Shown here one piece after another: positions 321 to 30,266 of a stretch of 64,000 nt of DNA. The position numbers and the translations under genes are program-made. Position 1 is the stretch's first letter, and every line of letters begins with the position of its first letter. The stretch is from IMG/VR virus record IMGVR_UViG_3300027653_000012, positions 502-64,501 of that record, one strand, 5' to 3'. Below the pieces are notes generated by a model. That model worked only from the letters and a program-made list of their open reading frames with translations, searched no databases and was not told where the DNA came from. This DNA is from a virus.

Positions 321-452
321 ATGAGTAGATACAAGATCGATCCTCCTCACGACTGCGAGATGGACGGCCATGACTGGCGCCGAATCGGATCACACCCGGA
401 CGGGACAACCTTTCACAGATGCCGTATCTGCGGGAAAGAGGACGAAGCATGA
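321..452 (+). CDS. Small Zn-ribbon-like protein (43 aa)
   Basis: MSRYKIDPPHDCEMDGHDW...RCRICGKEDEA; below the ORF-track cutoff. Confidence 0.6.
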   Translation: MSRYKIDPPHDCEMDGHDWRRIGSHPDGTTFHRCRICGKEDEA

Positions 453-474
453 AACCGATCCTCTATTCTGTATC

Positions 475-576
475 GGCTAACGACAAGATCACTCACGGAC
501 CTGAATCGTCCGAAAACCAGAAGTCTTAACGAAAAACCGGGCGGCTTACTCCGTTGAGTGCATCCCCTGGTTCGAC
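475..576 (-). repeat. attC-like site 1
   Basis: ggctAAC gacaa gatc actca cgga ... tccg t tgagt gcatc ccctg GTTcgac. Confidence 0.7.
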
Positions 577-589
577 TCAAAAACGACCT

Positions 590-832
590 ATGAAAAACAA
601 GACATTCGAGCAAGAGTTCAAGGAACTCATCTGTAAATACGACGTGGATCTACAATTCGTGGATAATTCATACGGAAATCTACCTGGCGTAAATTTTTGC
701 GTAGGCGAGAAGATCGTGTGTTCCGCAGCCAAGGACGGCGGATGGAACTTCGGTGATGGATTTATGCCGCTTTACGCTATCGCCGATTCCCTGTCGAACG
801 TCGAGCTGAGGCAACCCGACTCAAAACTATGA
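590..832 (+). CDS. Hypothetical cassette protein
   Basis: ATG at 590; ends SNVELRQPDSKL through attC 2. Confidence 0.7.
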   Translation: MKNKTFEQEFKELICKYDVDLQFVDNSYGNLPGVNFCVGEKIVCSAAKDGGWNFGDGFMPLYAIADSLSNVELRQPDSKL

Positions 833-898
833 AAAACCAGAAGACTCAAACGAATAACCCGGCGCGTAAACCGGGTTGCCTCCAGCGGTTTGTTCGAG
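793..898 (-). repeat. attC-like site 2
   Basis: gtcgAAC gtcga gctg aggcaacccg ... cgggttgcct c cagc ggttt GTTcgag. Confidence 0.9.
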
Positions 899-1158
899 GA
901 TTGATCGTGCGCCTGCTCCGATGGCTTCCGATTTCCGAAGCCAGCGCCGCATACAAGGAGGCTGTGCTTCTGGAGCTTGGGTTTCGGCGGAGTGAATTTC
1001 CGGGGTGCTGGCATGTGCCGGACTCCTGCGCGGAACGGTATGGACTGGAGGGACGCACGAGCTATCGAGAATGGATCATTCTGAAAAAGGTGGGGATGAG
1101 ACTTCCCTCGAACGTCGAGCTGAGGGACGGCGGGACCAAAACTGAAAACAAGGACTGA
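829..1158 (+). CDS. Hypothetical cassette protein
   Basis: ATGA overlap inside the attC 2 loop; ends PSNVELRDGG. Confidence 0.7.
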   Translation: MKNQKTQTNNPARKPGCLQRFVRGLIVRLLRWLPISEASAAYKEAVLLELGFRRSEFPGCWHVPDSCAERYGLEGRTSYREWIILKKVGMRLPSNVELRDGGTKTENKD

Positions 1159-1236
1159 ATCTATGGAAAATCAAAAAGTAAAAACAGACACGGACGGCGC
1201 TGATACCCGCCGTTCCTCTCCAGCGTCTGGTTCGGA
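1107..1236 (-). repeat. attC-like site 3
   Basis: Minus strand reads TCCGAAC CAGAC GCTGGAGAGGAACGGCGGG ... CCCGCCGTCCCTCAGC TCGAC GTTCGAG. Confidence 0.9.
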
Positions 1237-1444
1237 ATCGTCTGCTGTTGATCTCGACCGCATTGTAAGGAATCCGTGTCCATTTTGCGGAGGCGCACCC
1301 GTAGAGAAGAGGATGGCTTCCGGGCATGTCAAAATCGAGTGTCCTGACTGCCGATCCTCGACGCGTGTTTATCGGTCACCATCCTTCGCGTGGCTAACTT
1401 GGAATCATCGCCATTCTGTTCCGAACCAACAACAAAGATCATGA
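1163..1444 (+). CDS. Lar-family restriction-alleviation-like Zn protein
   Basis: PCPFCGG ... CPDC ... A..WN.R pattern. Confidence 0.75.
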   Translation: MENQKVKTDTDGADTRRSSPASGSESSAVDLDRIVRNPCPFCGGAPVEKRMASGHVKIECPDCRSSTRVYRSPSFAWLTWNHRHSVPNQQQRS

Positions 1445-1560
1445 AAAACCAAAATAGCAACGATAAGGTGATGCGCGAGGGCTCATCGCCACAGGAATCA
1501 GAAACCCGCTCCACCGAAGAGAACGGCGGGGTGGGTGTTGGCTGCACGAACTCGTTGGGC
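1420..1560 (-). repeat. Degenerate/hybrid attC-like site 4
   Basis: tccgAAC at 1420, second AAC gataag gtg near 1458, cac gaactc GTTgggc ending at 1560; arms pair poorly. Confidence 0.5.
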
Positions 1561-2193
1561 GTTATCCGCTCGGTCTATTACAACCAAGACGACATCCTTC
1601 GTGGCATCCAGCAACTGCACTGCCCAGAAGGGTTCGAGTGCGACATGACCTATGGAAACGGAGGGTTCTGGAGGAATCTGCCGCGCCCGAAATACTGCTT
1701 CGACATCTCTCCACAGAAACCCGAGGTAATAAAGGCGTGCTCGATGGCACTTCCGTTGGAAAGAGAGAGTCTTCGGAACTGCGTGTTCGATCCTCCCTTC
1801 CTCACCTACGTGAAAAACGGGAGGGGACATCAAGGTGGCAAAGTGGCGATGACTGCCCGCTTCGGCGGATACTACCGATATGACGAATTGGAAGACCACT
1901 ACCGACACACAATCAGCGAGGCGTGGCGAGTGTTGAAACCGGGCGGCAAGATGATCTTCAAATGTCAGGACATCATCCATAACCACAAGATGCACTGCAC
2001 GCACTATCGAACGATAATGATGGCGGAAATCGAAGGATTCCGGCTACTAGACCTATTCGTCCTGCCTGCACGCCACCGGATGCCGGGACCGCAAAAAGGG
2101 ACGCAGCGACACGCGAGGGTGTTTCACTCTTACTTTTTGGTGTTCGTCAAGCCGGGAAAACTTCCTCCGCCCAACGTAAAGCGTAGCCGATGA
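1441..2193 (+). CDS. DNA amino-methyltransferase (N6A/N4C type)
   Basis: DMTYGNGGF SAM motif, FDPPF catalytic motif, EAWRVLKPGG. Confidence 0.85.
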   Translation: MKNQNSNDKVMREGSSPQESETRSTEENGGVGVGCTNSLGVIRSVYYNQDDILRGIQQLHCPEGFECDMTYGNGGFWRNLPRPKYCFDISPQKPEVIKACSMALPLERESLRNCVFDPPFLTYVKNGRGHQGGKVAMTARFGGYYRYDELEDHYRHTISEAWRVLKPGGKMIFKCQDIIHNHKMHCTHYRTIMMAEIEGFRLLDLFVLPARHRMPGPQKGTQRHARVFHSYFLVFVKPGKLPPPNVKRSR

Positions 2194-2300
2194 GGCGTCG
2201 CTCACCCGTGATAAACAAAACTACTTATGACTCACGAAAACCAAAATATGAACGACAACGCGGGCCGTGAAACCTCATTGGCTACCGCGGTTGGTTCGGC
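2169..2300 (-). repeat. attC-like site 5
   Basis: gcccAAC gtaaa gcg tagccgatgagg ... cctcattggcta c cgc ggttg GTTcggc. Confidence 0.9.
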
Positions 2301-2529
2301 TAGGCGCATCCGAGTTCTATTCTGGATCGACTGGCTCGGGGAGCAAATGGAGGCGATCCGCGAAATCGAAAGCCCGCCTGTAAGCAACCATCCGGACCCG
2401 AACATCCAACACGGGTCCGACGTGCGATTGGTGCAAGCATGGATGAAGGCGAACGATGTCCCTAGCGGGACGTTCTTTTCCATTTTGCCGAACGTAGAGG
2501 CTAGGCGTGAGGGCCGGTCTGAAAACTAA
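2227..2529 (+). CDS. Hypothetical cassette protein
   Basis: Starts in the attC 5 loop, ends LPNVEARR in attC 6. Confidence 0.7.
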   Translation: MTHENQNMNDNAGRETSLATAVGSARRIRVLFWIDWLGEQMEAIREIESPPVSNHPDPNIQHGSDVRLVQAWMKANDVPSGTFFSILPNVEARREGRSEN

Positions 2530-2614
2530 CACAAACAAAGGAGACAAACAAAATGAAGAAAGATATACAGAAACGCGGCAGTCGGCCCGAATTGCCTACG
2601 CCGTCTGGTTCTCG
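2487..2614 (-). repeat. attC-like site 6
   Basis: gccgAAC gtaga ggc taggcg tga gggccg ... cggccc gaat tgccta c gcc gtctg GTTctcg. Confidence 0.85.
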
Positions 2615-3122
2615 GTCCGATACGCCGGAGACCGATGCACTGGAAAGGGACGGATACCACTACGCGATGCACAATATGCGTGCAAAGCTAGTCCCGAGCG
2701 AGCACGCCCGCAAACTGGAGCGCGAGCGGGACGAACTCCGCGAATGGATCATGCAGGCTGCGCCTATACTTTTAGCCGCCGGCTGTATCGTCGTCGACGA
2801 GGCTGTCGAGCGACTGGACGAGATCGCGGGAGTGCGCGGTGTGCTGGAGCTGTGCCCGGTAGATTTTGTGGCTCCGGAGGCTAAGCCGCGATATGGATCG
2901 GCCGATGGTCCGTTGGAAGAACAACTGAGACAAGAGAACCGGGATCTAAGACGGGCGCTGACTCTTGCTGCCCGATGGGGGATTTCGAGCGATGGTTTTT
3001 CGGCGACCGTGGCTGATGAATTGCGCCGTTGGGTCATCAACGACATGCAAGATCCGTTCCCAGAGCTGCCTGGTTATTTGTTCGACCAAACCCCGTTCAC
3101 TAAACCAACGACAATCGAATAA
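2553..3122 (+). CDS. Hypothetical cassette protein (SDTPETD...ARKLERE phage family, possibly fused)
   Basis: AGGAG SD and ATG in the attC 6 loop. Confidence 0.75.
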   Translation: MKKDIQKRGSRPELPTPSGSRSDTPETDALERDGYHYAMHNMRAKLVPSEHARKLERERDELREWIMQAAPILLAAGCIVVDEAVERLDEIAGVRGVLELCPVDFVAPEAKPRYGSADGPLEEQLRQENRDLRRALTLAARWGISSDGFSATVADELRRWVINDMQDPFPELPGYLFDQTPFTKPTTIE

Positions 3123-3126
3123 CACT

Positions 3127-3555
3127 ATGACTTTTCATCCTCATTCTTATCGTGATCCTGATCCTGATCGGGATCGGGCCGAAATGCTTCAGGAATATCT
3201 ATCCGGCCTTCCAAAATTCCGCGAAGTAACTTCATATCCTGGTCTTCATTCCCGCCGTTCCTCTCCAGCGTCTTGTTCGGCTGATCGTTCTCCTGCGTGT
3301 CCTGATGGCCGTAAAGATTGTCGATTCTCTTACGAAGGCATGACAACGCTAATTCACAGCCCTATTCAATACGATAGGGAAGGGAATCCAGTCGGTGGGG
3401 GTGTAAATCGGGTGGACAAGGTGGCGAAATGTAGTGTCTGTCGTCGCGTGTGGATATCTCGACAATCGGAGTTAGAGGATACTCAAGGAAAGGTTCGTGA
3501 ATGGAATGATTCTCCGTCGAACGACCAAGGTGAGGGACGCGGACCCGAACAGTGA
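3127..3555 (+). CDS. Hypothetical Cys-rich cassette protein
   Basis: ATG at 3127; CPDGRKDC and CSVC; ends PSNDQGEGR. Confidence 0.6.
   Translation: MTFHPHSYRDPDPDRDRAEMLQEYLSGLPKFREVTSYPGLHSRRSSPASCSADRSPACPDGRKDCRFSYEGMTTLIHSPIQYDREGNPVGGGVNRVDKVAKCSVCRRVWISRQSELEDTQGKVREWNDSPSNDQGEGRGPEQ
3251..3281 (-). repeat. attC half site 7 (one arm only)
   Basis: cccgccgttcctctccagcgtcttGTTcggc is almost identical to the right arm of site 3; partner arm not found. Confidence 0.7.
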
Positions 3556-3628
3556 AAGGTAAAATTATGAAGAAGAATAAGCAAACAGCGGCGGCTGGTC
3601 CGCGTTCCTCTCCAGCGACTGGTTCGGC
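3516..3628 (-). repeat. attC-like site 8
   Basis: gtcgAAC gacca aggtgagggacgcggacc ... ggtccgcgttcctctccagc gactg GTTcggc. Confidence 0.85.
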
Positions 3629-3908
3629 GTTTTCTCCGGGGGCGTGGTTCCTTATGCAATATGGCTTCGATTTCCAGAAGTTTTACATCATAGAAACTGT
3701 CGGTAACCGAATTTGTCTGTCGAAACGGGATTGGCTCGTGTCGAGTGGTGTATGGATGACACGCCGTGAGATGGAGGCCCGTCAAGCGCAATATATGGGA
3801 CACGGAAGGCGGAGATGGTTCTGGCGATGGCTACCATTCCGAGATTTGGTGGTGCCATTCTCTCCGCCGAACGCCGAACGGAGGCACCCGACCAGCGATG
3901 CAAAATAA
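3552..3908 (+). CDS. Hypothetical cassette protein
   Basis: GTGA overlap in the attC 8 loop; ends PPNAERR. Confidence 0.7.
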   Translation: MKGKIMKKNKQTAAAGPRSSPATGSAFSPGAWFLMQYGFDFQKFYIIETVGNRICLSKRDWLVSSGVWMTRREMEARQAQYMGHGRRRWFWRWLPFRDLVVPFSPPNAERRHPTSDAK

Positions 3909-3968
3909 CCTGAATCTTCTCGACAAATCCGGCGCGCCCATCGGGTTGCCTCCCGTGATTTGTTCTGG
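3866..3968 (-). repeat. attC-like site 9
   Basis: gccgAAC gccga acgg aggca cccga ... tcggg t tgcct c ccgt gattt GTTctgg. Confidence 0.9.
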
Positions 3969-4512
3969 AGTCGCTGGCATGGGCTCCCACCAATCCGCCA
4001 GGAGCGAGAAGGATGAATGGCTCACGCCGCCTGAGATCATCCGAGCACTCGGGGCGTTCGACCTTGATCCGTGTGCGCCGGTCAAGCGACCGTGGGAGAT
4101 GGCAGCGAGGCACTACACATGGCGGGATAACGGGCTGCTGAAACCGTGGGAGGGTCGAGTGTGGTGCAATCCTCCATACGGGCGGGAAACGGGGCGCTGG
4201 CTGGCAAGGTGCGCGGAGCACAGAAACGCTACGGCGTTGATCTTCGCCCGGACGGAAACCGCCGACTGGGTAAAGCACGTGTGGGGCGCGGCTCATTCCG
4301 TGATGTTCCTTTTCGGGAGGCTACACTTTTATCACGTGGACGGGCGTCGGGCCGAGGCGAACTCGGGGGCTCCGTCCGCGCTGATCGCATACGACGATCG
4401 GAACACGTCCGCCTTGGAAGCGTGTGGACTTCCGGGGCGGTTGATAAGACTCCACAACGACAAGAGGAGGAATCCCGAACAACCAAAGGAACCGAATGAA
4501 GACCAAGACTGA
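3898..4512 (+). CDS. Phage DNA N6-adenine methyltransferase (Dam-like phage family)
   Basis: DEWLTP, FDLDPCA, DNGL..PW, VWCNPPYG, ARTET, GRLHF motifs. Confidence 0.9.
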   Translation: MQNNLNLLDKSGAPIGLPPVICSGVAGMGSHQSARSEKDEWLTPPEIIRALGAFDLDPCAPVKRPWEMAARHYTWRDNGLLKPWEGRVWCNPPYGRETGRWLARCAEHRNATALIFARTETADWVKHVWGAAHSVMFLFGRLHFYHVDGRRAEANSGAPSALIAYDDRNTSALEACGLPGRLIRLHNDKRRNPEQPKEPNEDQD

Positions 4513-4577
4513 ACAGAAACCCAGCGATGCTACGAACGGCCGCGATGCAAGGGATTGCCTCCCTCGCCTGGTTCGGA
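4452..4577 (-). repeat. attC-like site 10
   Basis: ccacAAC gacaa gagg agg aatccc ... gggatt g cct c cctc gcctg GTTcgga. Confidence 0.85.
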
Positions 4578-4858
4578 GCTGGGGAAATACCGATTACGCA
4601 ATCATCGCTCGGCTTACTCCGCCGTATGATCTCGTGGCCCATCCGAATGGTCCGGCCATCACCAACGGCGATTGGTTTTCGGTGATCGATATACATCCCG
4701 ATGACAGCGATAAAGAGAAAGCGATCAAACGAGAGGCGCAAGAGAAGTGGCGTATATTTTCATGGCCACTGATAAAATCCAAATTCTTTCCTCCGAACAA
4801 GCAGTTCGACGAATCCGCCCAGATGCCTACAGACACAAGTGACAACAACAAACATTAA
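4496..4858 (+). CDS. Hypothetical cassette protein
   Basis: Starts in the attC 10 loop; reads PPNKQF through the terminal site. Confidence 0.7.
   Translation: MKTKTEQKPSDATNGRDARDCLPRLVRSWGNTDYAIIARLTPPYDLVAHPNGPAITNGDWFSVIDIHPDDSDKEKAIKREAQEKWRIFSWPLIKSKFFPPNKQFDESAQMPTDTSDNNKH
4792..4810 (-). other. attI-like simple recombination site closing the array
   Basis: Minus strand GTCGAAC-TGCTT-GTTCGGA: two inverted 7-bp cores with a 5-bp spacer and no long arms. Confidence 0.55.
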
Positions 4859-4890: not shown

Positions 4891-5196
4891 ATGAACAAAC
4901 TAATACAGACTATCGAACAATGGGGCGAAGATCGAAATATCATTGGCCCGGATGCTAAAGCGACACTCGAAACGCAATTCCTCAAACTCGAAGAAGAGGT
5001 GAGCGAAATCCACGAGGCAATCGCCAAGAAAGATGACATCGGAATCGTCGATGGCATCGGCGATGCAGTGGTTGTGCTGACACTGCTTGCAAGACTTGCG
5101 GGAACCGATCTGGAAGCGTGCGTAAACCATGCCTATCACGAGATCAAGAATCGCACGGGCAAGATGGAAAACGGGATGTTTGTGAAGGATGAGTGA
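4891..5196 (+). CDS. MazG-like nucleotide pyrophosphohydrolase
   Basis: KLEEEVSE ... DGIGD ... AYHEIKNRTGKMENGMFVK. Confidence 0.9.
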   Translation: MNKLIQTIEQWGEDRNIIGPDAKATLETQFLKLEEEVSEIHEAIAKKDDIGIVDGIGDAVVVLTLLARLAGTDLEACVNHAYHEIKNRTGKMENGMFVKDE

Positions 5197-5452
5197 TTTA
5201 GTGAATAAGGAACTCGAAGAGGAACCACAAAGCCGACGTGATCCTAACTTTAGCAAGTGGGCGATTACCATGGAGGGTGTCCGAGTGCTTGTTCTTCCCA
5301 GCAGAATTAAAAGCGTCTATTTGGACAGGAGACTACTGTCGGCAGCAGAAACCGCGTGGAATGCTGCCCGGAAACTTTACTCAACCGCGGCGACTGAGCA
5401 CTGCGCTGACGATAACACAAACCCAATAACCGAAGACCGTGAGAAGGACTAA
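5189..5452 (+). CDS. Hypothetical protein
   Basis: Overlaps both neighbours in the operon. Confidence 0.6.
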   Translation: MSDLVNKELEEEPQSRRDPNFSKWAITMEGVRVLVLPSRIKSVYLDRRLLSAAETAWNAARKLYSTAATEHCADDNTNPITEDREKD

Positions 5453-12754: not shown

Positions 12755-12757
12755 AAC

Positions 12758-12820
12758 GTCGAAACCGGCACCCTTGGCCGGTCTGGTGGGTTGGCATCCC
12801 GCCACTGATGAGACTGCCAA
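12758..12820 (+). ncRNA. Type II hammerhead ribozyme 3
   Basis: gtc-GAAA-ccggc/gccgg-TC-tggtggg/cccgcca-CTGATGA-gac; loop I ttggca pairs with 3' tgccaa; cleavage after 12783. Confidence 0.93.
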
Positions 12821-12837
12821 ACAAACAAAAAGCAACC

Positions 12838-15308: not shown

Positions 15309-15503
15309 GCGGAGTAGGTCCGACTAAATAACCCGTCGTAAAAAGCAAAGCCCCGTCTCTCCTACTTACGTATCTCACGCGCCGCGTGAGACTTCGGAGA
15401 AGACAGGGCTTACTCACTACCTATCACACTACCTATCACCTATGCGGACTCTCAGTGGTTCGCTGAATAGTAAAAACAAAAGACATCAATCCAACAAGCA
15501 AAA

Positions 15504-19857: not shown

Positions 19858-20889
19858 TTGAAATTCAGAAGAAACAAAAAGAGCAATATCATCTACGTTG
19901 AGTTCAAGGGTGAGAATGGCCGCGTATCCATGTCCACCCGCACCCGCGACATGGCAGAAGCAAAGGCGCTCGCCGAAGAAATAGGCATAGCCCATATCGA
20001 ACAGCTGGCCCGCCTCAATGCCATGGCTGCCGGAGCAGTGCAGCTTGCTATTTCTGGGAGACAGATCAAAGGGAGCCAGGCACTCAAAGAATGGAAGGAG
20101 TACTTGGAGCGCGTCTCACGCAGCACGCGTACAATCGAAAACAACCTGTGGTCAGTCAAAAGATTCTTGCGGCATCAGAACCTTGGCAACCGCCCGATCT
20201 CTGCGGTGTCGGAGGTTCACGTAGATGACTTCATCAACGACAAGAACTCGAAAGTAGTGGCTTCCACCCGGCGTCGCAATCTTACAGCCGTCCGATCCTT
20301 TCTTGAGTTTTGCACAGCCAAGAGATACATCATGAGCAATCCGGCTGTACTTGTTCCTGTGAAGCTTGAAAACATGACCCACAGCCAGAAGGAACCAAAG
20401 AGAGTTCAGCCGTTCACCGCCCACGAGGTGAAGAAGATGACCACTTTGTTACAAGGGGAATGGAGGCCCGCGGTTATTATTGCACTCGATGCAGGACTTC
20501 GCCTCGGCGATGTTTGCAAGCTTGAGTGGGACTCGTTTGACACAGAGCCAGGCCGGATTGTTGTCTGGACAGACAAGCGTGACAAGCGTGTCAGCCTCCC
20601 AATGACCGACCGTCTTCGCGATCTGAAGTCCGAACTCCCGCGCAAGAGTAAGCGATGGGTGCTCCCCTCACTCGCCAAAGACTATCAGGCAAGCCAGTCT
20701 TCCGTGTCGGTGAATTTCGGTAGGGAGCTTCGCAAGATTGGAATCGCCAAGGGGAAGAGTTTTCAAAGCCTCCGCGCTACCTTCGCCCGGAGGTGGCGAG
20801 GCTACGGAAAGACGGTTGACGAGATCCGCGAAGCCCTGGGCCACGACGACGAGGCGACGACGAAGAAGCATTACTTAGGAGAGAAATAG
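19858..20889 (+). CDS. int: Tyrosine recombinase/integrase
   Basis: SAM-like domain, AGLRLGD, K, QSLR (HxLR variant), LGH, C-terminal Y. Confidence 0.9.
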   Translation: MKFRRNKKSNIIYVEFKGENGRVSMSTRTRDMAEAKALAEEIGIAHIEQLARLNAMAAGAVQLAISGRQIKGSQALKEWKEYLERVSRSTRTIENNLWSVKRFLRHQNLGNRPISAVSEVHVDDFINDKNSKVVASTRRRNLTAVRSFLEFCTAKRYIMSNPAVLVPVKLENMTHSQKEPKRVQPFTAHEVKKMTTLLQGEWRPAVIIALDAGLRLGDVCKLEWDSFDTEPGRIVVWTDKRDKRVSLPMTDRLRDLKSELPRKSKRWVLPSLAKDYQASQSSVSVNFGRELRKIGIAKGKSFQSLRATFARRWRGYGKTVDEIREALGHDDEATTKKHYLGEK

Positions 20890-20927: not shown

Positions 20928-23900
20928 TCACCAGTCCACACGGAACGCATCCCTCAAGGCCGATCCATAGTCGGTCGCTGAGAAGGACGAGGCAAAGCCT
21001 CCGGACGATCGCCTTGAGCCGCTTCCGGATGAGCCGGTGTAAGGTGTCAGCCCGAGTCGCTGACCGTATCGGTTGTAGCTGGCGATTGCTTCTTGCGTCG
21101 CCTCTCTTCCGATCCGAGGCATCGCCTCCAGCAGTCTCCGGTATTCCGTGGCGCTGGGTGCCGATCGAAACACATTCCGCAGCGGGTGGCGGGATTGGTA
21201 GCTGCGCTTCACATGGTCCATCGGATCGTCCCTGCCCATCTTGCGGGCCTCCTCGATGGCGCGGCGGTAGGCCCGCTGGAACGCCTCTGGGTCATCGCGA
21301 AAAGCTGCCAGCTGCATGTTTGTTACGTGTGGCGTGACTCGCGTCGGTCTTGCGAATCCCCCACCCGTCCGCACTTCCATACCAAGATTTCTCCCGGTGG
21401 ATCTCAGCCAGTTTTGCACATTGATCCGCTGGGTCACTCCGCTCTCCGCCCTCAATCCGGGGATCGGCGGGTGCCCGAGCATGGTGTTCGTCATCTGCAT
21501 CGCTTGCATCGGGCCGCTTCCCATCGTGCTTTGGAAAAGCTGCCGCCATATACTGGCGTAGGTCGTATTGGTGATCCCCTGCGCGTTCACCGTGCCGATG
21601 GCGTCGATCAGCCTGCCAAGAGTGTTCACCCAAACGACCCGCTCGTCCACCGAAAGAACCTTCTGGCCAGTCGAGTCTCGGATCATTGCGACGCCTGCCA
21701 GTGCCTCCCCTCCGATTCCGAAGGGGCCCATCGCATTGACCCGCTCGATCAGCCCCATCACCGCCTCCTGCGGATTGTTGACAACGGCCGAAGGGTTCAT
21801 CGGCCGGATGTTCGGCTGCTTTCCAAGGAGCCGTCGGTCATACTCGTCGAAGGCGAAGGAATACAGCACCGCCACCGGCACCACCACCGCCATCAAACCC
21901 GCCAGTCCGATGGCCGAGCTTGCCAGCGTCCGGGCGTTCGTGGAGTCCCGCATCATGTTCGTAGTCGTGTTGAACGATTCGATAGACCATCCGACCAGTG
22001 GAATCGACATACGCCCAAGTTGACTCGTCAGACTGCCGACCGGTCGGTTCGTCAGGTTCGACTCCATTGAGACGTGGCTGATTGCGATCTGTGCAATCTT
22101 CTGCACCAGGTCCACGTCGAACGGGAACCTGCTTTTGTTCGGATTCTCGAACGCTGCGCGGCCGATATCTTCCATCGTGAAGCCATGGAGCTTGGCTTGC
22201 TCCGACATCTTTTCAAACACACTCCGGTCGTGCGCCTTCGTCTCGCCGATGTCCCGCGCCGTCACCTCGTAGTCCGGATCGTTCAGCCGGTGCGAATTCT
22301 TCCGATAAAACTCCGCGATCTTGCGGGCGTAGGTTTCGTAGGCCACCATCATCCCCCAAACCGCTGTCCGGTTGGAGCCCAGCTGCGACATCTGGAACGG
22401 AGCGAAAGGCCGGAAAAGAACTGCCCTCTGCTCAGCCCCCGCCGGGTTGATCGTAGTATTGTTCATCAGGTCGCTGGTTATCGCCAGTGCCTTCTTGATC
22501 TTCCCGCCAACCCCTTGTCGATCCCATTGTCCCATCGGCCCGCGCTGGCTTGCCAGATCGCCCAGATTTAACTCCCCGGCGTAGTCCAGTCCGTAACCGG
22601 CCGCGTCGATCTGCATCCACTTCTCGCGGTTCTCCAGCACATTCTTCCCGACGAGGCTTGCTAGCGTCGCCCATCCCTGCCGGACTGTCTCCGCCCAAGA
22701 GGAAGCCGATGACCGCATTGTTACCTTGTTCACGCCGAACACTCGCATAATGTCGTTGTTCGAGGTCATGTTCTTCAGTCCGGTCTTCGGGTTGTTGACG
22801 AGCTGGCCGACCACGAAATTTATCACATGCTGGAAGGTGCGGAAGTCGTTCGTCATCCCGTTGTGGTTTCCGAACATCGCCTTCACCTGCTCCGTCAGCC
22901 GCCTGGCGTTGAAGACACGCAGCGCGTCGTCGAGATCGCGGTAAAGCTCCCAGTCCTTCCCGAACGCTTTCTTTAGTTCCCGCTCCAGCGCCTTCCGGTC
23001 GCCGTCGAGCCTCGGGTTTTCGCGAATCAGATCGCCCGTCTTGCTATCGAGCGCGTTCTTTCTCAGCCGGAGGTCGTCCTCCATCCGGCCAAACAGGCTG
23101 AACAGCTCCTGAAAATCGCGGCCAAACACCGCCTGGCTCGCCACCTGCTGCAAGCGAAACCGGTTGTCGTCCTTCCCGAACCGCTCGTAGGTGAAGAACT
23201 GAGACGGCAGGTCGTAGGCCGTGCGAGCGTTGATCGAAGCGTAAGAAATTCGATCGGTGCTCACCGCTGTTCCGGTTTCGTCCGAAATATCGCCGACGTA
23301 TTCCTCCGCCATCCGCTTGTGGTATTTGCCGATGGTGTTGAGGATTGTCCCCGCGTATTCCGTGGCGGCATCCGGGTCCGCTTCGCCGGTGTGCAGCTCG
23401 TAGAGCCGCCGGCCAAATGCGATCAGGTCGCCGTTCGATTCCCCCCACGCCTCCGCGATCAGCGCCGGATCCGCCTTCACGCGGACCCCGTCCTCCCCCG
23501 TCGGCCGGTCGAGGATAGTCCCCGCGTCATTGTGGATCAGCGGCTCAATAAAATTCGCACGGATCGTTGGCGTCACCATCTGGGCCAGCTGCACTTGAGC
23601 TTCCTCCGGATTCTCTCGCAGCTGCCGGATGAACGCAGCCCGGTCAGCGTCCGTCCTCCACCAGCCGAGCCGCGCCATTTCATTGATCGCCACGCGGGCC
23701 GCGTTGCTCAGCGAGCGCGGGATAACCATCGTGCCGCCTTTCACCAATGAGCGAGCCAAGTATTCCTGGCGCTTCGTCACCGGGTTGAACCACGTTCCAA
23801 GACTGTCGTCTCGGATTGCCAGTCCATGCTTCACGAGCACCTCTTCGGTAAACCATTTGTTCGTGGCATCAGTGCGCTCCAGCAATTCGACAAACGTTTG

Positions 23901-26900
23901 CCAAGCTCCTTCACGCCCGAGGGCGTCCCTGACCATCGGATCGGCGAACAGGAACGAACGTAGATCCGCTAGCGCAGATTCTCTGCCAGCCATCGCCTCC
24001 AGTCCCAGCCAATGGGCCGCAGGATTCCAGATGTTCTGCATGAAAAACTCCTGGGAAACCCGTGCCTGCTTCAGCAACCGACTCTCTAGGCCCTCCCACC
24101 TGTTACCGTGGATGATCGACCTTGCTTCGTTCGGCTTCACGATCGCTTCGCGCCGCTCAAGCATCGAAGCTGCCATTCGAGCCGCTGGAAGCCCACTCTT
24201 GCGAAGCTGTTGCACGAAACTGTGGCGCATTTGGTCAAGCCACCCCTTGCGATACGGATACACTGCATCCTGAAGCACCTGTCTTCCAAGTCGTTCCGCA
24301 TTCACCTTTACCGTCCGGTAAACCAAGTCCTTTGCCGCCGGATCGTTCAGGCTATCCCGGTATTCAATGAATCGCTTCATCCGCTCCACCCAGCGGATCT
24401 TCTGCGCATTGCTCGTCGGAGTATCGCCGCCCACTCGAAGCGTCGCCCAATTCGGATTCCCTTCCCCGCCAGCTTCGATCGATGCGGTTGTAGCATCCGG
24501 CTTCGCGGGCACCACCAGTTCTTCTCCGTCCACCAGCGGTGTTTCAATATGCACATTGTGCCGCGCCCCAAGTTCGTCAGCAAGAAGTTTCACTTCCTTG
24601 GCTCCTTGCTCCACCGCTGCCAATCGGTTTTGATCTCCTTCCAGCCTCCGTTCCAGCGCAATCAGCTCCCGTCGCTTGTTCACGTAGGAGACAATCAGAT
24701 TGTTCTGCACGCTCCGTGGCATTGCCCGAACACGTTCTCGCAGCTGAGCCAACTCTTGCTCTGTGTTTAGCTTCAGGATACGCTGAATATCTTTCACCAC
24801 CGCTTGCCGGACTGTTGCGTCCATCCGCTGCACCTCCATCGCTGCGGCAAGGTGGCTTTCGTTCTTCACAAACGATATCAAAGTTGCGAGCAGTGCCGTC
24901 CCTCGCTCGCCCCGCACCAGATCAGCCAAGCTATCGTCGCCACGGTTCCTTGCATTAATTATCTCCTGCCGGATCTCTCGAACTGTATGACTAGCAAAAT
25001 CTAAGCCATCTTCCGAGAACCGTCGCAAGCGCTGGATGTAGGAGAAGATCGGCGTCTCGTTCGTCACCAGGTTGTTCAGCACCCGCTCATAGTTTGCAGG
25101 AATTGCTTGGTCATCCCGAAGGTTCAGCAGCGTTCGCAGCACCCCAACCGTGTTACCCGCCGCCTCATCACCCAGGCTCTGGGCTTTGATTGCCTTCCGA
25201 GTCTCTTCGATTGACTCGAATACCGCTTGGCGAATCTGCCGTTCCACGGCCTTCATGTCCGCCACGTTTGCTGCGACCTCTTCAAAGCTAATCCGCTTGG
25301 CTGCCAGCTGATCCGTGTTCGCCTGGATTGATCTGGTTAATTCGCCGGTCCGCTGCGATAGGTCGCGTTGGATTCTGTTCACCTGAGCCACAGCTTTCAT
25401 TTCCGCCTGCGCCCGCGCCTCGACCGAAAGGCTGTCAAGCGTTGTGTCCGCACTCACCGGATCGCCCATAGCCGCCATCGAGTCGGCCTTCCGTTGAGCC
25501 AGCGAGCGCGGATCGTGCGCCACTCCCATGCGGATCAGCAATTCCTCCCGCGTCAGCTTTGGGTCCTCCGTCCGCATTCGCTCCAGCGTCCGGTCTATGA
25601 ATTTGCTCACCTCGTTGTTCTCGGCGATGCTCACGAGAGCGTTCTGCCGCAGCCTGCGTCGCTGGTTCTCCGCCCGCGCCTCCGCCACGATCTGCGCCCG
25701 CGTCTTGCCGTCACCCTCCTGGCGGTATCGGATGTCTGGTGATGCCGGATTGAACCGCTGCGAGAGCGGGATGACGTTGCCGTTGTCGTCGTAGGTGACG
25801 GGATCGGCTAGCTTCGCCTCTCCTTCGATTCTCCCATCCTCACTAAATGGCAACGTATAAATGTCGGATTCCGCAAATCCATCTACTACTCGGCGCGTCA
25901 CGGTGCCGCGCGGCGTACGGTCCTCATTGTACGCATCCATCACCTCCTGATCCGCGTTGAGGCGCGGCACGCCTCCTTCAAATTCCCTCCACGGCCCTCG
26001 CAGCCAAAAACGTCGGACGGGACTGCCATCATCTTCATAATATGCTGCGGCGTTGCGCGATGATGAAAAGAAAGTGTGCCCCGACGCTACCCCGGTGATG
26101 CCGGACCCTGCAAATTCTTCACGGAAGACATTATCAACGGTTCCTGCATGGTAGGCTTCCACATCATACCCAGCGGCCTTCGCCGCCTCGTCCACCATCC
26201 GTTGTGCGGTTGCCGTATCGCCGCGTTCGACAGCCTCCATATACGCACGGTCTTGCTCCGGCGAAGGTATTATCCCCGCGTCCTCCATCTCCCGCCGCAG
26301 TAGCACTTCCGCCACTTCCATCTCAGCATCGCGTTCGTGGAGCGCCTGTGTCTGTTCCGCTGCGATAATCGCATTGCGGTTGTGGTCAAGGGCTTCAGGA
26401 GAGTCCGCCAATACCATCGTCGGGGTAATCTCGCCGGTAAACGGATTCACCGTTTCGGTAAAGCCATCCGGTGTCGTGAGCGTAAAGAAATGTGCGCTCT
26501 CGCTGTAAGTCAGTTTCCGTCCGCCCAGCCTTCCAAGAAGAGTTTCCGCATTTGGGATCGGCCTTCCATCAAGCATCCTTTGCCAGCGGGTTTCGATGTA
26601 TTCGCGGGCCAGCCAGTCACTCACCGGTTCGCTCAATGTGAATGCTCGCTGGAACTCCAAAGCCGCCTTCAAGAGCATTTCCTTTACTGCATCAACCAGC
26701 CTCCGCACCAGCCCCCGCGCCGTCTCCGCATCGAGTCCCTGCCAAGTCAGGTGCTCAACCAGCATCTCTTCTGTAACGACTCGCCTCCCAAGCCCTGCCG
26801 GATCATCCAGCCTTGCTCGCGGGTCAGCCCGCACCTCACCGTAAAAAGACAAGTCATTCGGGTCCATCCGGGCGATCATGTCCTGCAACATCTCCTGAAT

Positions 26901-29900
26901 ATGCTGCGGCTCGCTCTGGAAAACGTCGTGCGCCAGCTCGTGCATTAGGTCGCGCAAGTTCCGATAGGTTGGGTTCAGTATGTCCTCGATGGAAAGCTCC
27001 ACCGTCCGGTTGCTCGGAATGTAGCGGCCCCCTTCGCCGTGCCAGAACGAATCGGCTGCGTTCGTATCGGGTGAACGGATGTCCAGCGTCACCCCCAGCC
27101 GGGCGAGCGTGTAGGAAACATTGGAGAACCGCTGCCGCAACTCCTCGTTTGAAAGCCGGTGCTCGTCCACCCGCTGCTTCCGATAAAAGATTCCCTTCTC
27201 CGCCATCCCTTGCAGGTCACTCGCCAGCCCGTCGAGCTGCCGGTTTTGCAGGTCGGTGAAAGCCTCCCGCACATCGTCGGGAATCCCTTCGCCCATCCAC
27301 TGGCGGCGCTGTCCCTCCGGCAAAAGCTTCGCCACCTCGTTTTGCAACCGCGTCCGCACCTGCTCCGGTGTTCCGCGCATCATGTCGAGGATACCGGAGA
27401 CCCCACCCAGGTTGTCGATCAGTTGCGTGCTAGTCCCACTGCGAATCAACTGACTATAGATGTCACCCACGTCTGGACCCGAATCCTCCGCGACCATGCC
27501 TCTGCTCCCTACCGGTGCGTCATCTCCACTACCGGTCTCCGAATGGGCATCTCCCTCTTCTGCTCGACTCGTCTTTCTGGCACTCGCGATATCGGTGGAG
27601 ATAGTCCCTCTTCGTCGCCGAAGACCTTGATCGCCGCCTACTACCGCAGAATCGTCAATCGCCACTGTCCGCTGTCCACCTATCGACTGCGGGGAAACGG
27701 ATCGTTCTGCCCGGCGTTGAAAATCCGCCACTTGCCTTTGCTGCTCCGGTGTCATCTGCGAAAGCTGCTCCACCTCTGCGCGTGCTTCCGCCAAAGGATC
27801 GCCCGGCACACGCTTCCGTCTCCATGTCTCGTCCAGAAGCGTCGATTCTCCCCACGCCCGGCGAAGTGCTGCATCCATCGTAGCGTCGAATTCTGCACGG
27901 CTGGCAAAACGCTGGAAGAGTTGCGGCGGCACCTGGTTCGTCTGGAAGTATCCGAGCACCTGTGCTCCTTCGCGCCCGGAAACAGCAGCCAAACTCACAT
28001 ATGCTCGTGTGTTGGGGTCGTATCCCAGACGCTCCGCCGCATCGATGATGGCTTGTGATCGCTCACGCACATGAGGTCTGCTTCCGAAAATCTTTCCCTC
28101 TTCCCGCCAAAGCTTGAGCGCCTGGTTGACGTTGCGCGTATCCGCGCCCCGAACTTCACGGGCAATATCGGCTTGGCTCACACGACTCGCCTTGTTGTGA
28201 GCCAGCTGCTGCCCGCCTTGCCGGAACACCCCCCGAACCTCGACCGTCCCGTCGGCATTCTGCACGACGATGAAGTTTCGTGTCTGGCTCGCCGTCTGCC
28301 CCTCGGTCAATGCCGCTCGGGTCACGGCCTGCGTGTCCGTCGGATCGAACGGAATCAGGTTCGTCGCCAGCAAAGTTTCCGGCGTCCCCTCCGTCGCCGC
28401 CTCCGCCGTTATGCCCAGCAGGCTCGGAACACCTGCTTCCGTTGCAACCTCATGAGGTTGCGGGGTTGTGGTTGCAACCTCTGAAGGTTGCGTTTGTGTC
28501 TCAACCGCCTCAGTCGTTGCGACTGATTCAGCAGCGACAGGCGGAGCCGTATCCGGCATGGCAAACGGATCGTTGCCCACTGACGTTGCATCTTCCAGGG
28601 CCGCCCGAACGTCCGGATCAATCTGGCCATAAGATACCGTCTCCCGGCGCGCATCAATGGGAGACCCTACGACAATCTGCGAAGGATCGGCAGGAGGTGG
28701 CCCTTCTATAAGCATCGGGTCCGCCGAAGGTTCTGCCGCCGGCAGCGCAAATGGATCGACTGGAGCACCCGGCTCCAGTGTCGGAATGTCGAACGTTAGG
28801 TCTCGACGACCCTCCAGCCGAGCATCTTGTTCACCGATTATCTCGTCAACTGCGAGCAGCTGATTGAGCCGTGTCAGCGCTTCCGGGCTTTGTGCCTCTT
28901 GTTCAAGCCGGGTAAGGTTTTCCTCCCACCAGTCTATATATTCTTGTTCCGCCGCGGTTCGTTCGCTCGCAGACCGACCTTCGATATCCTCAGCAACCTG
29001 TCGGCCCCATTCAGCTTCTACTGCCGGTTGCTCGGTGGTTTCAAGAACCTGATCCAGCACTTCGTCGAGTGCGTTCTCCTTTGCGTCAGCACGAGTGCCT
29101 GCCTGTGTCCGCGAAGGCATTGCACCTGCTGCACCACCAAACACAACTCCGAGTGCGCCGCCTGCTGCAAAAGCATGTTCCAATCGACTGCGAATTTGCT
29201 CCGGGGTAATCTCGTAACCTGGGATCGTCGCCATTTCGCCAGCAATCATGAAGGCTTCGCCCATCGCTTCAGCCGACCCCTCCATCGCTGCGCCAAGACC
29301 GGCCTCACGCAAAACTCCTTTTACACGATCACGCCATATCTTCTTTGCTGCTTGCTCACCGCCTTCACGGGCAAGTTTTCGCATCAATAAAGCACCCACA
29401 CGCGCCGGATAAACCGTCTCCACGAGCGCAGCAGGCGTTCCAAACAGCAAGGCATTGCGAGCCGCCACATCGTGCTCCGCTCCCTGCTCCATCGCATTGC
29501 TATAAAAGTCTCCAACATAGGAAACCTCCATCGGGAGAAAGCCTCCGGCCAAGGCTCCACCTCTCGTCAATGCACCACGCAAAGCCTTCTGTTGCATGTA
29601 GCTTCCAGCTCCCCTGGCAACTTGTGCCGATGCTGCACGCGCAACTGTTCGCTCCACTCCCCTTTGAACCATGCGCCGCATCGCCTGCTGTGCAATCACG
29701 CGCGTCCCAATGGCCGTCCCGAGCCCACCGGTAACCATGCCGACCGGTCCGCCCGCAACCGTTCCCCCCAAAGCGCCCACCGCGCTCGTCGCCGCCATCG
29801 CTCCCATTACCGGAGCCGACTGCCCAGCATGTCCAGACAGCCATCGGAAAGTATCGCCAACCGTACGAATATCACGATGGCTTTCGATGGATGGCGGCGC

Positions 29901-30266
29901 GATATCCTGCAACGCCTCGACGCGCCGATCCTGAAACTCACGCGCCCGTTCCGCGCGATCTTCATTGCCAAGAGCACGCCACCCCAACTCTCGCGCAGCA
30001 CCGATCGCTACTCCCCCTTGCTGCACGCCACGTTGCAACCCTCGCCCGAACTCCGTCAAAACTCCCGGCGCATCTTCTCGACGGGCATCCAGATACTGTT
30101 CGCGAAACTCCGGGTGCTGTCGGTTCAGATCGTCTAGCCGCCCCTGTTCGCGCAGCCGGTCGCCGATTTCGCGGGTGATCGTGGTGTCGTCGCGCCGGTC
30201 GCGGATGCCCTGCGACTCGGCCCATTGGCGGTAACTATCGACTACGGGATTGGTGGATTCAGGCAT
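20928..30266 (-). CDS. Large polyvalent (probably DNA-ejection) protein, 3112 aa
   Basis: Gly/Ala-rich N-terminal helices, HELAH metallopeptidase motif, ART-like module AQRMVDEAAKAAGY...YH.G...DPVTYDDNGNVIPLSQRFN. Confidence 0.85.
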   Translation of the reverse strand: MPESTNPVVDSYRQWAESQGIRDRRDDTTITREIGDRLREQGRLDDLNRQHPEFREQYLDARREDAPGVLTEFGRGLQRGVQQGGVAIGAARELGWRALGNEDRAERAREFQDRRVEALQDIAPPSIESHRDIRTVGDTFRWLSGHAGQSAPVMGAMAATSAVGALGGTVAGGPVGMVTGGLGTAIGTRVIAQQAMRRMVQRGVERTVARAASAQVARGAGSYMQQKALRGALTRGGALAGGFLPMEVSYVGDFYSNAMEQGAEHDVAARNALLFGTPAALVETVYPARVGALLMRKLAREGGEQAAKKIWRDRVKGVLREAGLGAAMEGSAEAMGEAFMIAGEMATIPGYEITPEQIRSRLEHAFAAGGALGVVFGGAAGAMPSRTQAGTRADAKENALDEVLDQVLETTEQPAVEAEWGRQVAEDIEGRSASERTAAEQEYIDWWEENLTRLEQEAQSPEALTRLNQLLAVDEIIGEQDARLEGRRDLTFDIPTLEPGAPVDPFALPAAEPSADPMLIEGPPPADPSQIVVGSPIDARRETVSYGQIDPDVRAALEDATSVGNDPFAMPDTAPPVAAESVATTEAVETQTQPSEVATTTPQPHEVATEAGVPSLLGITAEAATEGTPETLLATNLIPFDPTDTQAVTRAALTEGQTASQTRNFIVVQNADGTVEVRGVFRQGGQQLAHNKASRVSQADIAREVRGADTRNVNQALKLWREEGKIFGSRPHVRERSQAIIDAAERLGYDPNTRAYVSLAAVSGREGAQVLGYFQTNQVPPQLFQRFASRAEFDATMDAALRRAWGESTLLDETWRRKRVPGDPLAEARAEVEQLSQMTPEQQRQVADFQRRAERSVSPQSIGGQRTVAIDDSAVVGGDQGLRRRRGTISTDIASARKTSRAEEGDAHSETGSGDDAPVGSRGMVAEDSGPDVGDIYSQLIRSGTSTQLIDNLGGVSGILDMMRGTPEQVRTRLQNEVAKLLPEGQRRQWMGEGIPDDVREAFTDLQNRQLDGLASDLQGMAEKGIFYRKQRVDEHRLSNEELRQRFSNVSYTLARLGVTLDIRSPDTNAADSFWHGEGGRYIPSNRTVELSIEDILNPTYRNLRDLMHELAHDVFQSEPQHIQEMLQDMIARMDPNDLSFYGEVRADPRARLDDPAGLGRRVVTEEMLVEHLTWQGLDAETARGLVRRLVDAVKEMLLKAALEFQRAFTLSEPVSDWLAREYIETRWQRMLDGRPIPNAETLLGRLGGRKLTYSESAHFFTLTTPDGFTETVNPFTGEITPTMVLADSPEALDHNRNAIIAAEQTQALHERDAEMEVAEVLLRREMEDAGIIPSPEQDRAYMEAVERGDTATAQRMVDEAAKAAGYDVEAYHAGTVDNVFREEFAGSGITGVASGHTFFSSSRNAAAYYEDDGSPVRRFWLRGPWREFEGGVPRLNADQEVMDAYNEDRTPRGTVTRRVVDGFAESDIYTLPFSEDGRIEGEAKLADPVTYDDNGNVIPLSQRFNPASPDIRYRQEGDGKTRAQIVAEARAENQRRRLRQNALVSIAENNEVSKFIDRTLERMRTEDPKLTREELLIRMGVAHDPRSLAQRKADSMAAMGDPVSADTTLDSLSVEARAQAEMKAVAQVNRIQRDLSQRTGELTRSIQANTDQLAAKRISFEEVAANVADMKAVERQIRQAVFESIEETRKAIKAQSLGDEAAGNTVGVLRTLLNLRDDQAIPANYERVLNNLVTNETPIFSYIQRLRRFSEDGLDFASHTVREIRQEIINARNRGDDSLADLVRGERGTALLATLISFVKNESHLAAAMEVQRMDATVRQAVVKDIQRILKLNTEQELAQLRERVRAMPRSVQNNLIVSYVNKRRELIALERRLEGDQNRLAAVEQGAKEVKLLADELGARHNVHIETPLVDGEELVVPAKPDATTASIEAGGEGNPNWATLRVGGDTPTSNAQKIRWVERMKRFIEYRDSLNDPAAKDLVYRTVKVNAERLGRQVLQDAVYPYRKGWLDQMRHSFVQQLRKSGLPAARMAASMLERREAIVKPNEARSIIHGNRWEGLESRLLKQARVSQEFFMQNIWNPAAHWLGLEAMAGRESALADLRSFLFADPMVRDALGREGAWQTFVELLERTDATNKWFTEEVLVKHGLAIRDDSLGTWFNPVTKRQEYLARSLVKGGTMVIPRSLSNAARVAINEMARLGWWRTDADRAAFIRQLRENPEEAQVQLAQMVTPTIRANFIEPLIHNDAGTILDRPTGEDGVRVKADPALIAEAWGESNGDLIAFGRRLYELHTGEADPDAATEYAGTILNTIGKYHKRMAEEYVGDISDETGTAVSTDRISYASINARTAYDLPSQFFTYERFGKDDNRFRLQQVASQAVFGRDFQELFSLFGRMEDDLRLRKNALDSKTGDLIRENPRLDGDRKALERELKKAFGKDWELYRDLDDALRVFNARRLTEQVKAMFGNHNGMTNDFRTFQHVINFVVGQLVNNPKTGLKNMTSNNDIMRVFGVNKVTMRSSASSWAETVRQGWATLASLVGKNVLENREKWMQIDAAGYGLDYAGELNLGDLASQRGPMGQWDRQGVGGKIKKALAITSDLMNNTTINPAGAEQRAVLFRPFAPFQMSQLGSNRTAVWGMMVAYETYARKIAEFYRKNSHRLNDPDYEVTARDIGETKAHDRSVFEKMSEQAKLHGFTMEDIGRAAFENPNKSRFPFDVDLVQKIAQIAISHVSMESNLTNRPVGSLTSQLGRMSIPLVGWSIESFNTTTNMMRDSTNARTLASSAIGLAGLMAVVVPVAVLYSFAFDEYDRRLLGKQPNIRPMNPSAVVNNPQEAVMGLIERVNAMGPFGIGGEALAGVAMIRDSTGQKVLSVDERVVWVNTLGRLIDAIGTVNAQGITNTTYASIWRQLFQSTMGSGPMQAMQMTNTMLGHPPIPGLRAESGVTQRINVQNWLRSTGRNLGMEVRTGGGFARPTRVTPHVTNMQLAAFRDDPEAFQRAYRRAIEEARKMGRDDPMDHVKRSYQSRHPLRNVFRSAPSATEYRRLLEAMPRIGREATQEAIASYNRYGQRLGLTPYTGSSGSGSRRSSGGFASSFSATDYGSALRDAFRVDW

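Follow-up and report, generated by a model that had tools for sequence, protein, structure and literature searches.

Integrons place promoterless genes behind a common promoter, with a recombination site following each gene. In the bottom strand of this site (attC), as Nivina et al. (2016, PMC5027507) describe it, the 5' arm contains the AAC triplet within R', and extrahelical bases stand near L'' at position 16, in some cases at 20, and at 23/24, where a T is conserved; the strand is cleaved between A and C. Clusters of attC sites lacking integron integrases (CALINs), defined by at least two attC sites with no integron integrase nearby, have been published from phages, and their cargo includes DNA methyltransferases, among them N6_N4_Mtase (Qi et al. 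2023, PMC9892861). Here we analyse a window of 64,000 nucleotides, bases 502-64501 of the 64.5-kb IMG/VR virus record IMGVR_UViG_3300027653_000012 (CheckV completeness 92%), in which ten small genes, all on the plus strand, are packed end to end across positions 449-4858. We are confident that this stretch is an integron-type cassette array without an integrase of its own, that is, a CALIN, and that its polarity is reversed: the genes are encoded on the bottom strand of their attC sites, and their reading frames cross the recombination point in a fixed phase.

Results

Site anatomy and strand

The junctions of the array (J0 to J9 from left to right, followed by a lone left core, J10) share one order of parts: a left core ending in AAC, 4-6 unpaired nucleotides, a stem of 12-18 bp, an A-rich loop of 50-90 nucleotides, the return arm, 4-6 unpaired nucleotides and a right core beginning with GTT. 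The spacer lengths are those of the best alignments, which leave 4-6 nucleotides unpaired on both arms. Hairpins resembling attC fold at eight of the ten junctions; J3 has both cores and no convincing stem, and J6 is a remnant. The core consensus, GYCGAAC/GTTCGRC, differs from RYYYAAC/GTTRRRY at one position. When the whole window was scanned on both strands at a score of at least 10, six of the seven distinct plus-strand sites fell inside the array, and one plus-strand site and one minus-strand site fell outside it. For the counts that follow, the nine window sites were pooled with 43 sites from eleven other loci, giving a set of 52.

Bulged bases are distributed very unevenly over these hairpins. 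On the gene-sense strand, the 3' arm carries 102 of them and the 5' arm 4; the 3' arm has more of them at 48 of the 52 sites, and the opposite is seen at none. Counted from the outer end of the R box, they cluster at positions 16/17 (47 bulges), 20-22 (17) and 23/24 (28). The last bulge is a T in 31 of 51 sites, and the first is a C in 38 of 51 rather than the usual G, a base that is not conserved at this position in chromosomal sites of the same phylum either. Because the bulges lie on its 3' arm, the gene-sense strand is the recombinogenic bottom strand. All genes of the array are thus on the attC bottom strand, each with its attC upstream, and none shows the classical top-strand coding. A preliminary description of the window, made from its letters and its open reading frames (ORFs), had already placed the genes antisense to the classical attC orientation, and the bottom-strand geometry of the bulges bears this out.

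The integrons of Verrucomicrobiota chromosomes served as a control. Among 301 sampled Verrucomicrobiota genomes, 87 had an integron integrase (IntI) above the cut-off; 20 loci were fetched around such IntI genes, and the seven with attC sites upstream of intI (30 sites) were scored. Their bulges number 61 vs 0, with the attC bottom strand being the integrase strand. Between sites, the longest ORFs are encoded on the strand opposite to the integrase, as expected for the classical polarity. Over the 12 sites where a coding sequence enters attC, the AAC phase is distributed 4, 6 and 2, so that no frame rule is apparent. Since the control is classical and unphased, the reversal and the frame rule belong to the phage-type arrays and not to the integrons of the phylum generally.

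Cassette boundaries and borrowed tails

The ends of a single cassette match each other across its length. Reverse-complementing the right 7-mer of one junction yields the left 7-mer of the next in seven of ten window pairs, and two more pairs are one base off. Over the pooled sites, the R boxes match in all four variable positions in 32 of 40 neighbour pairs, against 2 of 52 comparisons within the same site and 115 of 2612 between unrelated sites (P = 2e-36). When a cassette is circular, its complementary ends pair, and the match between neighbours is therefore an integron signature.

The extent of the mobile unit is seen in a related contig, L233, which holds one cassette twice, with one copy in the middle of the array and one adjoining the integrase. 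Over the whole unit from one left-core AAC to the next, including the arms, the loop, the start codon and the gene body, the two copies are 100% identical, and they differ immediately outside it on both sides. Their proteins are identical over residues 1-120 (ending in HRKPN) and then continue as TQLRNAGANQSTPDSHE in one copy and as NV in the other. In the pair L239/L303, which is 87% identical, homology begins exactly at the left-core AAC, and the stems show compensating changes. The window's own Dam cassette behaves in the same manner at its far end: in 16 of 20 aligned homologues, homology ends at an Asn, and the tails beyond it, 1 to about 20 residues long, are unrelated. The preliminary description had proposed a crossover at the left core, AA|C on the plus strand, with each cassette carrying its own start and borrowing its C-terminal tail from whichever cassette follows. 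Both proposals agree with the L233 duplicate, the first also with integrases that lie beyond the right end of related arrays on the same strand, and the second with the Dam homologues.

One could suppose that the inverted repeats are intercistronic RNA hairpins, acting in transcript stability or in translation control, and have nothing to do with recombination. They are transcribed with the genes, they hold start codons, and they fold as RNA at -26 to -44 kcal/mol. Yet the R-box halves match the neighbouring junction rather than their own, the cassette in L233 is duplicated exactly, and integron integrases adjoin the same arrays. Moreover, attC sites of this family are also present in viral contigs of unrelated phages, where the genes to either side are unrelated as well; one of these is a Mu-like phage with a single cassette. 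We therefore consider hairpins of this kind extremely unlikely, and continue with the repeats as attC sites.

Several searches give an idea of how widely such sites occur. In three fertilizer-metagenome runs the contig depths of the J8-type attC add up to about 26, and the sequences to either side of it are unrelated, so this attC type is common in those metagenomes. A scan for the left-arm pattern returned 101 stretches, with a matching hairpin at only 6 loci from 5 contigs, and most of the other stretches are probably chance matches; the right-arm pattern gave three matches in genomes, with sites in a single contig, L108. The contigs of runs X2-X5 that matched the window are short and represent the same phage at low depth. 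They also gave attC-only matches with loose ends at or near cores (849, 895, 1109, 1233, 2486-2490, 3866 and 3967), and no clear cassette excision joint was seen among them. An all-against-all comparison of cassette proteins found none of the window cassettes in other arrays. Among 61 loci of viral relatives of the Dam cassette, none had a reversed attC array beside the gene, and 15 had isolated or symmetric hairpins.

Two viral contigs deserve separate mention. In the Mu-like contig L003, a single reversed cassette lies on the minus strand at about 5196-5310, with its own end core 300 nucleotides downstream and no second attC present; it looks like an insertion at a non-attC site, and we take its gene to be DUF551-like. 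The Dam-bearing contig L153 has, at 457-3934, several symmetric hairpins (17/17) that end in AAC...GTT and whose arms show no asymmetry; these may be a different repeat family.

Reading frame across the left core

In the window, AAC is phased as an Asn codon at J1 (797), J2 (1111), J3 (1424), J4 (2173), J5 (2491), J7 (3520), J8 (3870), J9 (4456) and J10 (4796), where the upstream ORFs read, in this order, SNVE, SNVE, PNQQ, PNVK, PNVE, SNDQ, PNAE, HNDK and PNKQ. The frame is therefore secure at nine of the ten window cores (binomial P = 3.6e-4 against 1/3). At J0 (479) it is ambiguous: the ORF at 449-529 gives SAND, and an open frame at 370-480 ends with a TAA that overlaps the core. The earlier claim that AAC is read as Asn at all ten left cores thus stands for nine, and J6 had rightly been left out of that count, as it has neither left arm nor left core. 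The same description had suggested comparing the AAC and GTT frames in homologous arrays. Of the 43 sites outside the window, 34 have AAC in frame and six have a TAA or TGA overlapping the core, so that the gene ends within its own cassette; neither is found at the remaining three (P = 1e-9). GTT, which had been said to occur in all three frames, does so with a bias: relative to the downstream start it is in frames 1, 0 and 2 at 6, 2 and 1 window junctions, and where the start lies in the loop (44 sites) the three frames count 31, 7 and 6.

The A-rich loops, as first proposed, hold the upstream stop and usually the next start. The stop of the AAC frame lies in the loop, before the right core, at nine of nine window sites, and eight of these nine loops also hold the next ATG, the exception being the gene at J0, which starts past the right core. 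The AAC, the stop and the start all belong to the downstream cassette, and the upstream cassette supplies only the phase; hence any order of cassettes ends each gene beside the next start.

It is possible that the fixed AAC frame does nothing but ensure clean termination, in which case selection against fusions and long out-of-frame overlaps would suffice and coupling would play no role. In keeping with this, all 52 pooled sites have a stop of the AAC frame ahead of the right core, whereas the other two frames stop there at 36 and 26 sites and elsewhere run on for hundreds of bases into the following gene; and at 7 of the 52 sites the gap from the stop of the AAC frame to the next ATG is large (+33 to +75). 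However, an exact ATGA overlap of stop and start is the commonest single arrangement (15 of 52 sites), and the gap lies between -17 and +24 at 41 of 52, which is tighter than termination would need. We find an explanation by termination alone doubtful, and suggest that the frame rule serves translational coupling.

Integrases of related arrays

L108, a 13.6-kb contig of a Verrucomicrobiota metagenome-assembled genome (MAG), contains an exact match to one of the window's attC arms. It carries three scanner-scored attC sites (a fourth was seen by eye near the contig start) with genes on the same strand and, 22 bases past the last stop, a 317-aa protein with an IntI-type insertion motif that scores 261.8 bits against the TIGR02249 profile over positions 4-313. 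In the viral contig G302, ten sites are followed by an IntI-like gene scoring 247 bits over the full profile. Both values are just below the curated TIGR02249 cut-off of 265 bits. The contigs L230, L231, L232 and L233 have the same array-then-integrase layout on the same strand, and the 5' end of the integrase always adjoins the array end that in the window bears the lone core.

In a tree of IntI proteins, six of the seven phage-type sequences form one clade (support 100/100), separate from the 19 chromosomal IntIs of this phylum; the remaining one, from G302, is a long branch whose placement is unsure. Candidate attI-like boxes are present in the window as CGAAC-N5-GTTCG at 4792-4810 and in L108 as TAAC-N7-GTTCG just before intI, and G302 has no clear second box. 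Integrases of the phage clade would be the enzymes that act on arrays of this type. In the chromosomal integrons L208-L227, intI often lies within an open frame of 420-560 aa, well beyond the 315 positions of the model.

Organisation of the array and its surroundings

Three of the ten array genes have recognisable products, namely a Lar-like restriction alleviation protein, an N6/N4 DNA methyltransferase and a Dam-type methyltransferase; the remaining seven have no Pfam or PHROG family match. All features listed here are on the plus strand, the positions of the AAC triplets being those given above. At the left end, the ORF that reads SAND at J0 (449-529, 26 aa) competes with the longer open frame at 370-480. 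The leftmost attC, J0, spans 475..576 (GTT 570). Cassette 1 (481..798) extends from the C of core J0 to the AA of core J1, and its gene (590-832, 80 aa) starts after the right core. At attC J1 (793..898, GTT 892) the stop TGA at 830-832 overlaps the ATG at 829 as ATGA, and cassette 2 (799..1112) carries the gene at 829-1158 (109 aa). The attC at J2 (1107..1236, GTT 1230) has three bulged bases on its 3' arm and is followed by cassette 3 (1113..1425), with the Lar-like gene at 1163-1444. J3 (1420..1560, GTT 1554) has a degenerate stem, cores that chain with those of its neighbours, and an ATGA overlap at 1441-1444; cassette 4 (1426..2174) holds the DNA methyltransferase gene at 1441-2193 (N6_N4_Mtase, phrog_24333). 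After attC J4 (2169..2300, GTT 2294) comes cassette 5 (2175..2492), whose gene at 2227-2529 encodes 100 aa.

Beginning at attC J5 (2487..2614, GTT 2608), two fused cassettes occupy 2493..3521 with genes at 2553-3122 and 3127-3555. Inside them lies the J6 remnant, a right arm and core only (about 3248-3281, GTT 3275); the end core of the first fused cassette and the left arm of the second have been lost. The J6 right arm (about 3248-3281) is 94% identical to that of J2. Next follow attC J7 (3516..3628, GTT 3622) and cassette 8 (3522..3871), with a gene of 113 aa at 3567-3908, then attC J8 (3866..3968, GTT 3962) and cassette 9 (3872..4457), with the Dam-type DNA N6-adenine methyltransferase gene at 3898-4512. 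The last attC, J9 (4452..4577, GTT 4571), precedes cassette 10 (4458..4797), the last of the array, whose gene (4496-4858) continues for 20 further codons past the terminal core. That core, J10 (4792..4810), reads TCCGAAC and has no arms; behind it come a 5-nt spacer and GTTCG. The lone core is complementary to the right core of cassette 10 and would be the attI-side end of the array, yet no integron integrase comes after it.

The array sits in the early operon of a phage. We take the gene upstream to be RuvC-like, from its N-terminal motif, and the genes downstream to be MazG-like and SSB-like. None of three loci with relatives of the flanking MazG-like gene had an array. The host of this phage is probably a member of the Verrucomicrobiota, an assignment based on one MAG contig that is itself perhaps a phage. 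No RNA datasets carrying the array stretch were listed. An Rfam scan of the window (Rfam has no attC family) returned only two elements above their gathering scores, both outside the array: a type II hammerhead ribozyme on the plus strand at 12757-12822 (45 bits) and a DUF3800-VIII RNA on the minus strand at 15347-15412 (64 bits). Directly after an ordinary tyrosine recombinase gene (19858-20889), one ORF of 3112 aa extends over 20928-30266 on the minus strand.

Discussion

Read in gene order, a cassette of this array consists of the C of the AAC core, a spacer, the left arm, the A-rich loop with the start codon, the right arm, the gene body and a final xxxxAA, with the right arm encoding about the first 20 residues of the gene. 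We propose that an integron integrase supplied in trans cuts the left core between A and C. Every gene arrives at this point with AA, the first two bases of an Asn codon, and each attC carries that frame on to a stop in its own loop, so that the last 1-20 residues and the stop are taken from whichever neighbour comes next. With the borrowed stop on or near the neighbour's start, translation could pass from gene to gene in any order of the cassettes. The window array itself may still be active.

A number of observations count against this interpretation. The attC sites were called with a purpose-made scanner, the sites treated as real were picked by hand from its list, and eight low-scoring rows inside long ORFs were left out by judgement before the frames were counted. 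Folding with DNA parameters gives z-scores of -2.2 to +0.1, with only one of nine junctions below -2; the case for attC sites rests on architecture rather than on thermodynamics. The decisive duplicate is located in L233 and not in the window, and it is in that contig only that a discrete mobile unit running from AAC to AAC was seen. G-T wobble pairs favour neither strand in the phage-type arrays, and we dropped them as evidence for the gene strand after a fair two-strand count gave 17 vs 17. A search with the TIGR02249 profile found no integron integrase in the window or in its 64.5-kb record, and the array is therefore classed as a CALIN. The only tyrosine recombinase, that at 19858-20889, reaches 41.6 bits when the genome is searched and 54.8 bits with hmmscan, against the cut-off of 265 bits, and it covers profile positions 2-182 only, without the C-terminal half of the model. 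Finally, the Dam cassettes of L237 (1-200) and L238 (2417-2622) have bodies that are 92% identical and a common right core, with unrelated upstream attC stems, and the window Dam and its 85% identical relative P0001 differ in their leaders. These differences mean that attC and gene do not always travel together, and the first pair hints that exchange or rapid turnover near the right core may also occur. In the chromosomal integrons L208-L227, G-T wobble pairs favour the bottom strand by 29 to 5.

The Dam pairs lead to the question whether the plus strand could be the classical top strand after all, with exchange at G|TT of the right core, so that the start and about the first 20 residues would come from the upstream cassette. 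Both L237/L238 and the window Dam with P0001 share their bodies from about the right core on and not the upstream stem or leader, and likeness between attC families also stops just past the right core. Against such an exchange stand the bulge geometry, the position of the integrase, the lone left core at the integrase-side end, the L233 duplicate and the L239/L303 pair; in addition, as GTT occurs in three frames, recombination there would often break genes. We judge it very improbable, and retain a crossover at the left core, AA|C.

More broadly, we lean towards the view that Verrucomicrobiota phages keep an integron system of their own, with a separate integrase clade and a mirror-image cassette pool. 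The attC would act in it as a translation module, providing the start codon and leader of its own gene and an in-frame tail and stop for any gene upstream, and a universal AA|C = Asn phase would allow every order of cassettes to be translated. The recombination chemistry would be the same, with opposite gene polarity and with proteins read across the crossover. If this is true, annotation pipelines mis-call the strand, the starts and the C-termini of phage cassette genes, and phages own a gene-shuffling pool, which here contains anti-restriction genes, namely those for Lar and two DNA methyltransferases. The constant codon phase would then be a simple, testable rule that keeps translation intact in any modular order.

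In the literature that can be read without subscription we found no description of the reversed, frame-locked layout, with bottom-strand genes, loop starts and fixed phase. The published phage CALINs (PMC9892861) resemble the window array in having attC-bounded cassettes, no IntI nearby and methyltransferase cargo. Their cassettes are oriented as in bacteria or mixed, however, and section 3.4 of that paper is silent on bottom-strand genes, loop starts and a fixed frame. With the classical cassettes, as set out by Nivina et al. (PMC5027507), the window shares the R box, the 5-6 nt spacer, the extrahelical bases at 16, 20 and 23/24, the distal T, the variable loop and the complementary ends; and the end at which the integrase lies, and its strand with respect to attC, are the same in classical integrons and in the related phage-type arrays. 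The window differs from these classical integrons in that its genes are on the opposite strand, attC precedes the gene and the ORFs run across the point of recombination; C, and not G, is the usual first extrahelical base, the R box is one position off, and the cassettes read towards the integrase instead of away from the Pc promoter.

The nearest precedent for coupling across a crossover is ORF-11 of attI1 in class 1 integrons (PMC8876359), which likewise spans the crossover, takes an in-phase stop from the inserted cassette and thereby couples its translation to that of the next gene. ORF-11 is, however, one short leader peptide at attI, whereas in the window the arrangement is found at every junction, in the universal phase AA|C = Asn. 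The inverted integron-integrase group, from Treponema and others (Cury et al. 2016, PMC4889954), also has its integrase and cassette genes co-directed. In that group, as described there, it is the integrase that is flipped relative to attC, whereas in the phage-type arrays the relation of integrase to attC is the usual one and the coding sequences are flipped.

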